A stretch of DNA of 64,000 nt, taken from the NCBI GenBank assembly GCA_964016885.1, contig OZ024743.1:193812001-193876000 (forward strand). Reading direction: 5' to 3'. Shown one piece after another: positions 12,182-16,673 of the stretch. This DNA is from Eledone cirrhosa (lineage: Eukaryota). The translations under genes and the position numbers were made by a program. Under the pieces are notes generated by a model that searched no databases, was not told the origin of the DNA, and saw only the letters and a program-made list of their open reading frames with translations. Positions within the stretch are counted from its first letter, which is position 1; each line of letters begins with the position of its first letter.

Positions 12182-12230
12182 GAGGCGTAAGATGAGAAAA
12201 TTATAAAATTAACTTACTTACTAAAATATC

Positions 12231-12312
12231 ACTTCCAACTAATTAGTTTCTGGAATGGAGTAGATACATCTTCCGAAGAAGATGTAGAGAAACATCCCGT
12301 CATCAGGAAAGT
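12231..12312 (-). ncRNA. type I hammerhead ribozyme motif, R1 copy 1
   Basis: ACUUUC-CUGAUGA-C-GGGAUG...UACAUCUUC-UUCG-GAAGAUGUA...CAUUCC-A-GAAA-CUAAUUAG-UU-GGAAGU. Confidence 0.8.
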
Positions 12313-12752
12313 CAATTCTCATATAAGCTTCCAGGCAAAGCGAGGACACTGGAAGCTTATTAAAAAATAAATCAGTGAATAGGAAATAGCAAAGCGTGGA
12401 CTTAATTCCTAGCCATTGAGAAAATCACTGCCTCTGTGTCCGTGGCAAATTCAAAAAGAATCGAACACGTGACGTCGAGGTCAATCGGTGGAAAGTGGGC
12501 TGTTAATAAGACAGCGGCCGGCCTACTACAGTAGTAGCAGTCATGGCCAGTATTGCTCGACAAATATTTTGGAGATAATAATAAAGAATTTATATCTAGT
12601 AACATATATATACATACAAATGCATATCGATGCTAGCAAATATATAGGTTTTGTCTTAATAACATTGTGGTTCAATGCATTGGGTTGCAGAACAATAATA
12701 TAAGAAGCGTAAGATAAGAAAATTATAAAATTAACTTACTTACTAAAATATC

Positions 12753-12834
12753 ACTTCCAACTAATTAGTTTCTGGAATGGAGTAGATACATCTTCCGAAG
12801 AAGATGTAGAGAAACATCCCGTCATCAGGAAAGT
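12753..12834 (-). ncRNA. type I hammerhead ribozyme motif, R1 copy 2
   Basis: Same motif as 12231-12312, one monomer away. Confidence 0.8.
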
Positions 12835-13158
12835 CAATTCTCATATAAGCTTCCAGGCAAAGCGAGGACACTTTGCTATTTCCTATTCACTGGTTTATTT
12901 TTTAATAAGCTTCCATTTTTTTAATAAGCTTTTTTAATAAGCTTCCAGGCCGGCCGCTGTCTTATTAACAACCCACTTTCCACCGATTGACCTCAACGTC
13001 ACGTGTTCGATTCTTTTTGAATTTGCCACGGACACAGAGGCAGTGATTTTCTCAATGGCTAGGAAGTAAGTCCACGCTTTGCTATTTCCTATTCACTGAT
13101 TTATTTTTTAATAAGCTTCCAGTGTCCTCGCTTTGCCTGGAAGCTTATATGAGAATTG

Positions 13159-13240
13159 ACTTTCCTGATGACGGGATGTTTCTCTACACCTTCTTCGGAA
13201 GATGTATCTACTCCATTCCAGAAACTAATTAGTTGGAAGT
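13159..13240 (+). ncRNA. type I hammerhead ribozyme motif, R1 inverted copy
   Basis: ACTTTC CTGATGA CGGGATG...CATTCCA GAAA CTAATTAG TT GGAAGT. Confidence 0.8.
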
Positions 13241-13421
13241 GATATTTTAGTAAGTAAGTTAATTTTATAATTTTCTTATATTATTGTTCTGCAACCCCAT
13301 GCATTGAACCACAATGTTATTAAGACAAAACCTATATATTTGCTAGCATTGATATGCATTTGTATGTATATATATGTTACTAGATATAAATTCTTTATTA
13401 TATATATATATATATATATAT

Positions 13422-14537
13422 AATTTAATACAATAACAGAGATAGCTTAACGCTAAACTCCGACTGGCAACCATCTCACTCAACAAACATTAGGTTATAT
13501 GTAAACCCGGAGTTTAGCGTTAAGCTATCTCTGTTATTGTATTAAATATGTTACTCTTGATTTGGCCAGAGGTATTTATTTCCAGGTACCTTATAAGTAT
13601 GACTTTCCGTATTTGTTACTGTTGTGAGATATGGAGGTTTTTTGGTTGTCACTTCTCTGTTTTTAGCCTAAGAAAATATATATATGCGTGTGTAAATAAT
13701 TGCATATATACATTTATTTTTTAAAATTAATTGAGTTCTTAACACGTGGAATTGATAATAGTTTTAAATAACTAATTAACCCGCGTGTATTAAATATTTT
13801 ACTCTTAATTTGGCCAGAGATTTACATTCCCAATCGCCTTTAAAGCGTAACCTTCCGTATTTGCTGCGGTGATGTGATGTGGTTTATTATTTTGGCATCA
13901 CCTCTGTTTTTAGCCTAAGAAAATATCTATATGCGTGTGTAATTAATACACGCATACATTTATTTTTTAAATTTCAATTGAGTTCTTAACACGTTGGATT
14001 GATAATGTTTTTGAAAAAACTAATTAACCCGAGTTTATATTATTTTTTTCTTTTCTCGTGTATCGTGGTTGTCTCCCCTTCCCGCTTCGTGACGCTATGA
14101 AACTTCCTCAGTCAAAAAACTGCTGGAATTTCAAATTTGGCGGTCATTCGATGCATGAGGGAGCAGCTTAGCAGACACGATTTTTAACTGCGGTAAGAAT
14201 TTTTTCTTATATCAAAGTTTAATGGGCTTCCACTGAAGATTTATAAGTACCCACCTAAATATATTCTTACATGAATATATGTTAGGCTTCTACATAAACT
14301 GGAAACATTCTCCCAATTTGTAGAAAACTTATAATGAAACAATTGTTTGGAAAGAGAGATATATTTTAACTTTAATTATATCTAATAAAATAATACAACT
14401 GGCTTTCCACAAAATACATATAGTTAGCACCCCAAACACATAAATTGGGTTATACTAACATATAACCTAATGTTTGTTGAGTGAGATGGTTGCCAGTCGG
14501 AGTTTAGCGTTAAGCTATCTCTGTTATTGTATTAAAT
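13422..14537 (+). mobile_element. non-coding hammerhead-bearing element, family R3: about 990-bp circularly permuted monomer with an 80-bp inverted 5' arm
   Basis: 13508-13547 repeats directly at 14498-14537, and 13422-13502 is the reverse complement of about 14457-14537. There is an internal 248-bp tandem duplication (13538 vs 13786). (TA)n flanks both ends. Confidence 0.7.
14228..14352 (+). ncRNA. type I hammerhead ribozyme motif with branched stem II
   Basis: TTCCA CTGAAGA T TTATAAGT [two hairpins] ACTTATAA T GAAA CAATTG TT TGGAA. Confidence 0.8.
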
Positions 14538-14575
14538 ATATATATATATATATATATATATATATATATATATAT

Positions 14576-14815
14576 ATTAGAAATGTTAGAAATTAAAGAA
14601 ATTATTTAGCCTGATAGTGCGGTTAAGAACCCTCGGAGAAATGGAAAAAGATGAGTATTGACGTACATACTCATCTTTTTCCATTTCTCCGAGGGTTCTT
14701 AACCCCACTATCAGGCTAAATAATTTCTTTAATTTCTTTAGTCAAAATACGGCGATAGCTAACATTTCTAATAATTTCAAATCCACCCGCTGTTTCGAAA
14801 ATATTCTTACTTAAT
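14576..14815. mobile_element. fold-back PLE-like terminal fragment in (TA)n
   Basis: Near-perfect inverted arms 14588-14658 and 14667-14737, then a unique tail. A related non-folded copy lies at 14884-15040. Confidence 0.55.
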
Positions 14816-15378
14816 ATATATATATATATATATATATATATATATATATATATATATATATATATATATATATATATATATATGTACGGCAACACTCATC
14901 TTTTTCCATTTATCCGAGGGTTATAAACCCCACTATCAGGCTAGAAATTTCTTTAGTCTAAAAATACGGTGAAAGCTTATAATTTCGAATTTCGAATTTC
15001 AAAATCGCGCACCGTTTCAAAAACATACTTACATGTTTACGTTTATATATATATACATATATGTGTATATATTTATATATATACATATATGTATGTATAT
15101 ATATATATATATATATATATATATATATATATATATATATATATATATATATATATATATATATATATATATATATATATATATATAGAGAGAGAGAGAG
15201 AGAGAGAGAGAGAATTAGTATATCTACCAACATATGTATACAGATGTATACCCATGCTAGCAAATATATATGTTATGTCTTAGTACCTTTGTGGTTCTAT
15301 GCAGGGGGGTGCAGAACAATTATATGAAAGACGTAGAATGAGAAAATTTTGAAAATTAACTTACTTACTAAAATTTTC

Positions 15379-15460
15379 ACTCCAACTAATTAGTTTCTGT
15401 AAGGGGATAAATATAGTTACGTAACATAACTATAGAGAATTCCTTACATCATCAGGGAGT
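15379..15460 (-). ncRNA. type I hammerhead ribozyme motif, R2 copy 1
   Basis: ACUCC-CUGAUGA-UGUAAGG...UAUAGUUA...UAACUAUA...CCUUACA-GAAA-CUAAUUAG-UU-GGAGU. Confidence 0.8.
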
Positions 15461-15909
15461 CTATTCTCAGCTAAGTTCCCAGGCAATGCGCGGACACTAG
15501 GAACCCATATAAAAATAATAATTCAGTGGATGGAATAAAGCTAGCGGGGACTAAATTCCAAAGCACTGAAAAATTCATTGCCTCCTTGATCAGTGGCAGA
15601 TTCTAAAGAATCAATCACGTGACACTGAGCTTAATCAGTGAGGAGTGGGGTGGTATTATGACAAGAGCCTACTACTACCATGAATCACAGCAGTAAATTT
15701 TGGCAAGTTTTACTCAACAAATAATTTGGAGATAAATATAGATAATTAGCATATCTACCAACATATGTATACAGATGTATACCCATGCTAGCAAATATAT
15801 ATGTTATGTCTTAGTACCTTTGTGGTTCTATACAGGGGGATGCAGAACAATTATATGAAAGACGTAGAATAAGAAAATTTAAAAAATTAACTTACTTACT
15901 AAAATTTTC

Positions 15910-15991
15910 ACTCCAACTAATTAGTTTCTGTAAGGGGATAAATATAGTTACGTAACATAACTATAGAGAATTCCTTACATCATCAGGGAGT
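15910..15991 (-). ncRNA. type I hammerhead ribozyme motif, R2 copy 2
   Basis: Same motif, 531 bp from copy 1. Confidence 0.8.
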
Positions 15992-16269
15992 CTATTCTCA
16001 GCTAAGTTCCCAGGCAATTCGCGGACATTAGGAACCCATATAAAAATAATAATTCAGTGGATGGAATAAAGCTAGCAGGGACTAAATTCCAAACCACTGA
16101 AAAAATTCACTGCCTCCTTGATCAGTGGCAGATTCTAAAGAATCAATCACGTGACACTGAGGTTAATCAGTGAGGAGTGGGGTGGTATTATGACAAGAGC
16201 CTACTGAATTATTATTTTTATATGGGTTCCTAGTGTCCGCGCATTGCCTGGGAACTTAGCTGAGAATAG

Positions 16270-16351
16270 ACTCCCTGATGACGTAAGGAATTCTCTATAG
16301 TTATGTTACGTAACTATATTTATCCCCTTACAGAAACTAATTAGTTGGAGT
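16270..16351 (+). ncRNA. type I hammerhead ribozyme motif, R2 inverted copy
   Basis: ACTCC CTGATGA CGTAAGG...CCTTACA GAAA CTAATTAG TT GGAGT. Confidence 0.8.
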
Positions 16352-16673
16352 GAACATTTTAGTAAGTTAATTTAAAAAATTTTCTTATTCTACGTCTTTC
16401 ATATAATTGTTCTGCACCCCCCTGCATAGAACCACAAAGGTACTAAGACATAACATATATATTTGCTAGCATGGGTATACATCTGTATACATATGTTGGT
16501 AGATATACTAATTCTCTCTCTCTCTCTCTCTCTCTCTCTCTCTCTCTCTCTCTCTCTCTATATATATATATATATATATATATATATATATATATATATA
16601 TATATATATATATATATATATATATATGTAAAAGAAATCAAAGAACGCCTACGTACTCATACAAATTTTATTT

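Follow-up and report, generated by a model that had tools for sequence, protein, structure and literature searches.

Which reverse transcriptase (RT) mobilises the retrozymes of animals, and what that enzyme recognises, is an open question. For retrozymes of the non-LTR kind (those that lack a long terminal repeat, LTR), the 2020 (Cervera and de la Pena, PMC7229834) and 2026 (Li, Clavereau and Pollet, 10.64898/2026.07.22.740005) papers argue for a link with Penelope-like elements (PLEs) from co-occurrence and from similarity to the pseudo-LTRs (pLTRs) of PLEs. PLE insertions carry a tail of 30-40 bp at one end (Craig et al. 2021, PMC8557442), which two internal RT start sites explain in vitro (Frangieh et al. 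2024, PMC11167929). Dimeric cleavage is established for the hammerhead ribozymes of PLEs and newts; about 40% of the representatives of Perreault et al. (2011, PMC3088659), from all three hammerhead types, are pseudoknotted, and fast hammerheads are known to depend critically on a pseudoknot that joins stems I and II (PMC3088659). The present analysis, whose comparisons draw on parts of the papers cited, concerns two hammerhead-bearing repeat families, R1 and R2, in 64,000 nt of Eledone cirrhosa (assembly GCA_964016885.1, contig OZ024743.1, positions 193,812,001 to 193,876,000; this whole stretch is called the window, and positions are counted from its first letter). R1 and R2 are almost certainly non-autonomous PLEs, which is a kind of element already known (non-LTR retrozyme or non-autonomous PLE). 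The explanation that best accounts for the data overall, and that we hold to be probable, is that they are non-coding units mobilised in trans by PLEs of the Hydra clade and carrying a predicted pseudoknotted type I hammerhead.

A strict pattern scan of the window found exactly six hammerheads of the R1/R2 kind, at the places where an earlier note, made from the sequence alone, had read them, together with their GUU site and palindromic stem III. Each motif spans 82 nt from stem I to stem I and consists of a stem I of 5-6 bp, CUGAUGA, a spacer (49 nt in R1 and 51 nt in R2), GAAA, the palindrome ACUAAUUAGU and GUU; this is the type I core, in which CUGANGA, GAAA and UH are set about three stems and stem I is left open. 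The repeat periods of 522 bp (R1) and 531 bp (R2) were reproduced, and the two families are ~75-78% alike. The canonical G10.1-C11.1 pair is absent from the base of stem II, the pair beside the core being C.A in four copies and U-A in two, with a G-C pair one step outward; the earlier note had not remarked on this. An Rfam scan of positions 8000-22000 (E <= 1) listed no hammerhead family and just microsatellite-driven miRNA matches.

The anatomy of the insertions is Penelope-like. Copies form partial tandems that are truncated on their 5' side and in many cases carry an inverted arm, and both 3' ends lie in (TA)n; 5' truncation, partial tandem arrangement and an inverted 5' copy are all expected of PLEs, and the (TA)n target is that of Hydra-clade PLEs. 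The 3' ends cluster ~55-65 nt (site A) and 165-185 nt (site B) past the predicted cut, ~120 nt apart. Amongst 49 two-arm insertions, 36 have A/B ends, two A/A and one B/B, and ten have another end, so that 36 of the 39 classifiable insertions are A/B (p 2e-8 against 50%). A tail is accordingly present at one end, as expected from two RT start sites, although at ~120 nt it exceeds the published 30-40 bp. In the window, the main arm of R1 (12178-12872, minus strand) consists of a 5'-truncated partial unit and one 522-bp unit and terminates within (TA)n at site A, the short 3' end; it is followed by an inter-arm junction (12873-12946) of rearranged element sequence with a 48-bp inverted piece and 13-bp repeats, and by an inverted arm (12947-13401, plus strand) that terminates within (TA)n at site B, the long 3' end, which includes the ~120-nt tail. 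The R2 main arm (15211-16205, minus strand; ~1.9 units of 531 bp) ends at site B in (TC)n(TA)n, and its inverted arm (16203-16513, plus strand) also has a site B end; this is the sole B/B case among the 39. In correction of the earlier note, the third copy of each family belongs to the inverted arm and is no tandem unit.

The earlier note had also taken the families for RNA replicons in their own right, and from the insertion anatomy they are better read as non-autonomous PLEs. An origin as autonomous RNA replicons, or as satellite DNA amplified by DNA mechanisms only, could appeal to the existence of some local arrays and to a monomer that is strongly structured in fold prediction. Dispersal over many contigs, fixed 3' ends, variable 5' ends and inverted arms are, however, what reverse transcription leaves behind, and the antisense strand yielded no hammerhead; the anatomy largely refutes this origin, which we regard as exceedingly improbable. 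The local array in point (L109; G000:C4:181133500-181141500) is a mosaic of nine R2 units with an inverted arm, in which units three apart diverge by 0.5-1.8% and neighbours by 1.8-5.0%, a pattern that suggests later block duplication at the DNA level.

Rare variants connect the two arms of an insertion. For R1, 35% were common to opposite arms, 37% to tandem units and 2% to different loci (29 loci); for R2 the values were 22%, 17% and 3% (25 loci). Because of these common variants, both arms of an insertion are likely to derive from one template or source locus, although gene conversion may offer an alternative source for them. Separate RNA templates for the two arms were rejected, since rare variants are as often common to opposite arms as to tandem units.

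Consistent with the description of the families as non-coding and retrozyme-like, the longest ATG-initiated open reading frames (ORFs) in the R1 and R2 units are 67 and 35 amino acids (aa), GC content is 36% and 35% (below the 50% of retrozymes), and each tandem unit carries a type I hammerhead, as non-LTR retrozymes do. No similarity was found between the units and four PLE proteins of the same genome. The circular minimum free energy (MFE) structures of the cut-to-cut monomers have z scores of -7.5 and -5.8 in the sense orientation and -4.2 and -1.8 in antisense (40 shuffles each), so that by fold prediction the monomers are highly self-paired, again like retrozymes. Units of 522 and 531 bp lie above the 150-450 bp of PMC7229834 and inside the 51-972 bp of 10.64898/2026.07.22.740005.

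The earlier note had named as a refuting outcome that the monomers might always be the pLTR of a coding PLE. This is not so: none of 187 distinct long-arm copies lies in the pLTR position of a coding element, and none showed an ORF with RT and C-terminal GIY-YIG domains between pLTRs, within flanks of 0.7-1.5 kb for most loci and a sampled part of PLE diversity. The units work like a Hydra pLTR and are not a coding member. It is nonetheless conceivable, if very unlikely, that a coding PLE family outside the sample has this long hammerhead too and that the units are its solo pLTRs, given that scoring covered 150 of the 62,143 candidates for a Hydra-like endonuclease and 150 of the 10,596 for GIY-YIG, and that 19 plus 12 regions were viewed with wide flanks. 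Against a solo pLTR origin, the units stand head to tail with no ORF, both 3' ends map within the unit, and the two of the 187 copies that adjoin PLE coding fragments with no intervening (TA)n both resemble insertions into other elements.

The families are part of a much larger population. In the 3.0-Gb assembly, the pattern CTGANGAN{40,62}GAAACTAATTAGTH has 10,819 exact matches and its reversed control none, which argues that the six motifs are not due to chance, and two further long-arm patterns add ~9,500 (5,371 matches, control 17; 4,202 matches, control 1). These totals are counts of exact matches, some of them unrelated (3 of 30 loci examined for the 5,371-match pattern), and conservation of the core among them holds by construction because the patterns fix it. 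The proximal stem II helix takes at least seven forms among the matches listed (GGGAUG, GUAAGG, GCAAUG, GAAAGG, GGAAUG, GUAAUG and GAAAUG), and R1 and R2, which the earlier note had presented as two sister families, are instead two of at least seven subfamilies of one superfamily. Each has more than 2,400 first-look candidates, and the best of the full-length copies that were scored lie dispersed and have 93-98% identity. Three contig sets (one sample, of unknown type) document only presence and the short end joined to (TA)n, while a metagenome scan gave 12 matches, none with stem I, that are attributed to chance.

Stem II bears out the proposal that its pairing is selected at the RNA level. 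Alignment A1 comprises 68 rows from 122 distinct motifs with intact flanks, with R1 and R2 row numbers limited and one insertion-bearing row dropped. Proximal pair 2 occurs there as GC (30), UA (19), AU (11) and CG (8) and is unpaired in none of the 68 rows, and proximal pair 5 as UA (41) and GC (24); all four distal pairs scored change on both sides. The covariation score was reached by none of 500 shuffles, and pairing was 97% compared with 25-46% in slid controls. On a tree built from upstream flanking sequence (55 of 113 rows), compensatory stem II changes fall on separate branches, by reading ~4 at pair 2 and ~2 at pair 5. The distal hairpin ranges from 3-4 bp (L156) to ~10 bp and, because of this range, is a variable-length cap and no domain of fixed length; of the selected stem II domain put forward in the earlier note, the proximal helix and the internal loop stand, and the distal hairpin is free in length. 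Similarly, pairing and total length are both kept between R1 and R2, but beyond them the spacer varies from 41 to 55 nt in the first 100 matches listed. The R1 distal hairpin as first described is found in some copies, whereas the third R1 copy in the window, UACACCUUC, forms an imperfect hairpin that is the commoner form (15 versus 4 identical spacers among 43 R1 motifs). Two further structures were set aside: a distal stem I helix (ACUUA/UAAGU) that is 97.6% paired, shows no two-sided change and competes with an upstream hairpin, and an ENE-like triple helix, for which the 3' loop strand, judged by eye, does not match the Hoogsteen partners.

The internal loop of stem II contains a conserved UUCUC 8-10 nt past the core, and GAGAA stands 8-9 nt ahead of the core. 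On the minus strand, R1 hammerhead 1 (scan motif 12229-12314; 12231-12320 with the GAGAA strand) has GAGAA at 12316-12320, the core at 12300-12306, UUCUC at 12287-12291, the distal hairpin at 12265-12286 and a predicted cut after 12237, and R1 hammerhead 2 (12751-12836; 12753-12842) has GAGAA at 12838-12842, UUCUC at 12809-12813 and a predicted cut after 12759; on the plus strand, R1 hammerhead 3 (13157-13242; 13151-13240) has them at 13151-13155, 13180-13184 and after 13234. The corresponding R2 positions are 15464-15468, 15435-15439 and after 15384 in hammerhead 1 (minus strand; 15376-15463, or 15378-15468 with the GAGAA strand), which has U-A at the stem II base; 15995-15999, 15966-15970 and after 15915 in hammerhead 2 (minus strand; 15907-15994 or 15909-15999); and 16262-16266, 16291-16295 and after 16346 in hammerhead 3 (plus strand; 16267-16354 or 16262-16352).

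Because the pairing changes in step across families, UUCUC and GAGAA quite probably form a pseudoknot, a tertiary contact between the stem II loop and the strand upstream of stem I. Genome counts at one pair of this candidate are 7,657 G-C, 259 G.U (some counted twice through TTTTCTC), 190 A-U (nearly all one subfamily) and 48 A.C (scattered over subfamilies). The UUUUC subfamily has GAAAA upstream, as expected from pairing, although that prediction was put on record only afterwards. Other families present UGAGAAG/CUUCUCA, GGAAAA/UUUUCC, GGAAA/UUUCC, UGAGU/ACUCG and UGGGC/GCCCA in the same geometry. Across 13 representatives, the pairing sum with the own partner was 75, compared with 47.6 under permutation, and none of 100,000 permutations reached it; with six distinct pairing types, the true partnering was the best of 720 permutations, but the representatives are related, and the geometry window and the six-type subset were picked after the data had been seen. 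This caveat tells against the pseudoknot, as do several other observations: 8 of the 13 representatives taken singly do not differ significantly from shuffles (p > 0.05), the UUCAC copies (L119, L146 and L154) retain GAGAA upstream, one large family (L105/L186) has a mismatch in the pairing, and GAAAA/UUUUC forms one clade and one event on the tree, the sole independent double change within the R superfamily.

That single double change would also suit an incidental match in a mobile element that is otherwise as described, where GAGAA instead lengthens stem I by way of the UUUU downstream and the long stem II either binds protein or is neutral; the stem I extension (GAGA/UUUU) is 94.5% paired and appears in the R2 MFE structure. 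It shows no two-sided pair changes, however, compared with two for the pseudoknot, its duplex energy is -0.7 kcal/mol against -5.2 and -6.5, and it leaves the matched changes elsewhere (UGGGC/GCCCA, UGAGU/ACUCG) unexplained, which makes an incidental match unlikely. No description of an internal-loop pseudoknot in a long stem II was found in the literature compared, which excluded the supplements of the 2026 preprint and Lunse et al. (RNA Biol 14:1499), the latter of which may describe long stem II variants.

The source of the mobilising enzyme is suggested by a second RNA element. Directly behind the short end, retrozymes and Hydra-like pLTRs alike have a hairpin, G(U/C)UCUG-N-CAU(A/U/C)GA(A/G)C, with a 2-nt 3' bulge. 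In the R1 main arm this tail hairpin, GUUCUG..CAUUGAAC, lies at 12670-12693 (minus strand) and in the inverted arm at 13286-13309 (plus strand); in R2 it lies at 15294-15317, with a second copy at 15825-15848 (main arm, minus strand), and at 16409-16432 (inverted arm, plus strand). Its stem is GUUC/GAAC in the retrozymes and GCUC/GAGC in the coding elements, a compensatory change. The hairpin follows the pLTR hammerhead in 19 of 22 Hydra-type and in none of four Neptune-type cases (one of these Neptune-type motifs lying in a Hydra locus). It can also be seen in published consensus sequences of Hydra elements from sea cucumber and coral (PMC8557442 supplement): Hydra-1_Ajap, Hydra-2_Ajap and the record before Hydra-1_Obim; no mention of it was found in the parts of PMC8557442 used here. 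Two Hydra-like elements (L092, L104) extend ~110 nt past the end seen in two others (L093, L099).

Since the hairpin is common to Hydra pLTRs and bears a compensatory change, a Hydra-clade PLE is, as far as sequence comparison can indicate, the likely mobiliser of R1 and R2 in trans. The genome contains many long PLE ORFs, and the 844-aa ORF of one of them (L096) agrees motif by motif with the Hydra alignment of PMC8557442; the clade assignment rests on this comparison by eye because a Pfam search of the ORF found no family. Two results detract from the Hydra connection: the sampled Hydra-like elements have a short-stem hammerhead and no other sequence in common with R1 and R2, and a pattern search for the hairpin in a third long-arm family gave none in nine. 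Other candidate partners fared worse. Naiad elements, for which an 'HHR_half_core' with core halves 35-50 nt apart in the 3' untranslated region is described (Craig et al. 2021), were rejected on half-core order, GAAA preceding CUGAUGA in Naiad_Obim and Naiad_Ovul (two of nine half-core records), the opposite of R1 and R2. Neptune-type elements were rejected on the absence of the hairpin from the four pLTR hammerheads noted above, a small sample. A broken, 5'-truncated Hydra-like PLE at 17779-19169 (minus strand), with an RT thumb and a GIY-YIG domain in separate frames and 62,143 first-look candidates in the genome, was rejected as a parent, being a separate insertion beyond a (TA)n tract behind which no hammerhead was found.

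A mechanism can be proposed on this basis. A Hydra RT/GIY-YIG protein would bind element RNA at the bulged hairpin ~65 nt behind the ribozyme, and its endonuclease would cut (TA)n. Both DNA ends would then prime reverse transcription on one template; the first start would be at site A, immediately 5' of the hairpin, and the second ~120 nt further, at site B. The resulting pair of 5'-truncated cDNAs would be linked in head-to-head orientation. Transcripts of several units would be reduced to unit length by the hammerhead, which probably acts as a dimer by way of its 10-nt palindrome. A pseudoknot of 5-8 bp would keep stems I and II parallel, a task that normally falls to contacts between loop 1 and loop 2, and the distal hairpin would have no role but to close the loop. 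A circular monomer is plausible as the template.

Real cleavage by the R1/R2 hammerhead is somewhat favoured, and a circular intermediate falls a little short of an even chance. The MFE structure of the monomer lacks stem III, while the 10-nt palindrome forms a duplex of -9.0 kcal/mol and no hairpin alone; both results fit dimeric cleavage. Several points, beginning with that missing monomer stem, weigh against efficient self-cleavage as a step in mobilisation. C.A in place of G-C at the stem II base may lower activity; eight of nine Xenopus retrozyme dimers did not cleave (10.64898/2026.07.22.740005), so that activity is not assured; PLE insertion in vitro did not need ribozyme cleavage (PMC11167929); and the predicted cut shows no surplus of 5' ends (3 of 134 arms, p 0.14) and hence no significant cleavage footprint, ~28 arms at +53/54 being a chaining artefact.

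The hammerhead may instead be kept structurally while being weak or protein-dependent, with transposition through uncut linear multimers, longer arrays made at the DNA level and no circles. The C.A base pair, the lack of a pile-up of 5' ends at the cut site and the L109 mosaic, with its sign of block duplication, all speak for such a course, as does the Anolis PLE, in which uncut RNA is the main substrate and the ribozyme is protein-assisted (PMC11167929). Arms longer than one unit (62 of 134, in a sample biased to full units) would, on the other hand, be hard to sustain under 5' truncation with neither circles nor template jumps, and a tertiary contact kept by covariation suggests selection for an active fold. 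A structural or protein-dependent hammerhead is a real possibility, yet less probable than cleavage of multimers by an active one.

Other elements and features accompany R1 and R2. Between them lies a third hammerhead element (13399-14562), with a unit of ~990 bp, an internal 247-bp duplication and an inverted 3' arm (13399-13502). Its long-arm hammerhead is unrelated to those of R1 and R2 (14228-14352, or 14223-14352 with the upstream UGGGC; plus strand) and has a 96-nt branched stem II, a palindromic CAAUUG, and UGGGC facing a loop GCCCA (ACCCA in the window copy); the corresponding pattern, with its 4,202 matches, spans several families, one of them with a long rod-like stem II (L257, L259). 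At 14578-15117, two tandem copies of a 225-bp unit, together with inverted arms, lie in (TA)n; their anatomy is PLE-like, and no hammerhead was found in them. Just upstream of the hammerhead, at 12330-12365 (minus strand) and at the R2 equivalent, is a hairpin of 10-12 bp that differs on both sides between R1 (AAGCUUCCAG/CUGGAAGCUU) and R2 (GGGUUCCUAG/CUGGGAACUU). A palindrome, GTCACGTG, is conserved in the middle of both units; we presume that it could be a promoter element. The flanks of the loci held at least 12 further hammerhead families with spacers of 13-62 nt (e.g., L002, L007, L008, L017, L025, L026, L029, L107 and L127), and (TA)n tracts are hot spots for nested insertions. Neptune-type PLEs with ORFs of 551-1096 aa were encountered (L243, L249-L252), two of which (L250, L251) have short hammerheads ~400 nt past the stop codon. 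Several broken non-LTR retrotransposon ORFs (endonuclease and RT fragments) occupy 20703-32268 and 56129-63201.

A hairpin of 22-36 nt that is common to retrozymes and Hydra-clade PLEs across phyla, and that lies exactly at one RT start, could be tested in the existing in vitro PLE assay, and the R hammerheads offer a natural series of compensated candidate pseudoknots. One published core search restricted the spacer to 7-17 nt, and genome ribozyme counts obtained with short stem II descriptors are suggested to be underestimates. Nothing in this analysis shows a host function. A broader proposition concerns type I hammerheads whose stem II is 40-100 nt long, branched or internally looped, and locked by an internal-loop pseudoknot: they would be an undescribed active architecture overlooked by short-stem descriptors (~20,000 pattern matches in this genome). 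The bulged hairpin would be a clade-wide recognition and initiation signal of Hydra RTs, which, at the two ends of a (TA)n break, would use two fixed starting points to copy a single circular retrozyme RNA. Taken as a whole, we consider this proposition doubtful and offer it tentatively.

R1 and R2 resemble the animal non-LTR retrozymes (Cervera and de la Pena 2020, PMC7229834; Li, Clavereau and Pollet 2026, 10.64898/2026.07.22.740005) in their lack of coding sequence, in their low GC content, in tandem units that each contain a single type I hammerhead, in their thousands of copies and in a proposed dependence on PLEs. Their units are larger than the 170-400 nt given in PMC7229834 and within the range of the 2026 paper. 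Unlike the retrozymes described in the parts of those papers used here, they have a stem II, 41-55 nt long, that contains an internal loop and is likely to be pseudoknotted, and a specific PLE clade and a common cis hairpin can be named for them.

With Hydra-clade PLEs (Craig et al. 2021, PMC8557442), they share the (TA)n target, the partial tandem with inverted arm, the one-ended tail, a palindromic stem III, a stem II base that is often mismatched and, behind the short end, the bulged hairpin. They differ in having no RT/GIY-YIG ORF and in the length of the tail (~120 nt versus 30-40 bp), and their stem II is long whereas all Hydra hammerheads in File S2 of that paper have a short one (3-7 bp, with a loop of 3-10 nt). 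The same file also lists C.A at the stem II base for PLE-X1_cBra, and two spike-moss PLE-X elements are on record with long variants of loop 2 (PMC8557442). The Poseidon PLE of Anolis (Frangieh et al. 2024, PMC11167929) is similar in that two internal RT starts downstream of the hammerhead define the tail and in its AT-rich target, both strands of which are cut and extended in Poseidon; it differs in belonging to another clade, in being autonomous, in its short tail and short stem II, and in initiating inside a stem-loop that is AC-rich.

At the level of the ribozyme, the pseudoknotted hammerheads of Perreault et al. (2011, PMC3088659) have a Watson-Crick pseudoknot between stems I and II that stabilises the active fold, for which R1 and R2 provide a candidate. 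In that consensus, a terminal loop is joined to a single-stranded tail, mostly in type II motifs, whereas in R1 and R2, which have a repetitive type I motif, the partner would be an internal loop and the stem II that contains it is two-part (or branched). The minimal hammerheads of PLEs (Cervera and de la Pena 2014, PMC4209133) are alike in the extra nucleotide after A9, in the palindromic helix III, in the many covarying families per genome and in a helix II above canonical length (7-8 bp there); the R hammerheads differ from them in a helix III of 3-4 bp, an extra A before G12 and a second domain on helix II. The overall class to which R1 and R2 belong is not new; they add to it a hammerhead variant that is new, along with a candidate cis signal linking a retrozyme to one PLE clade.

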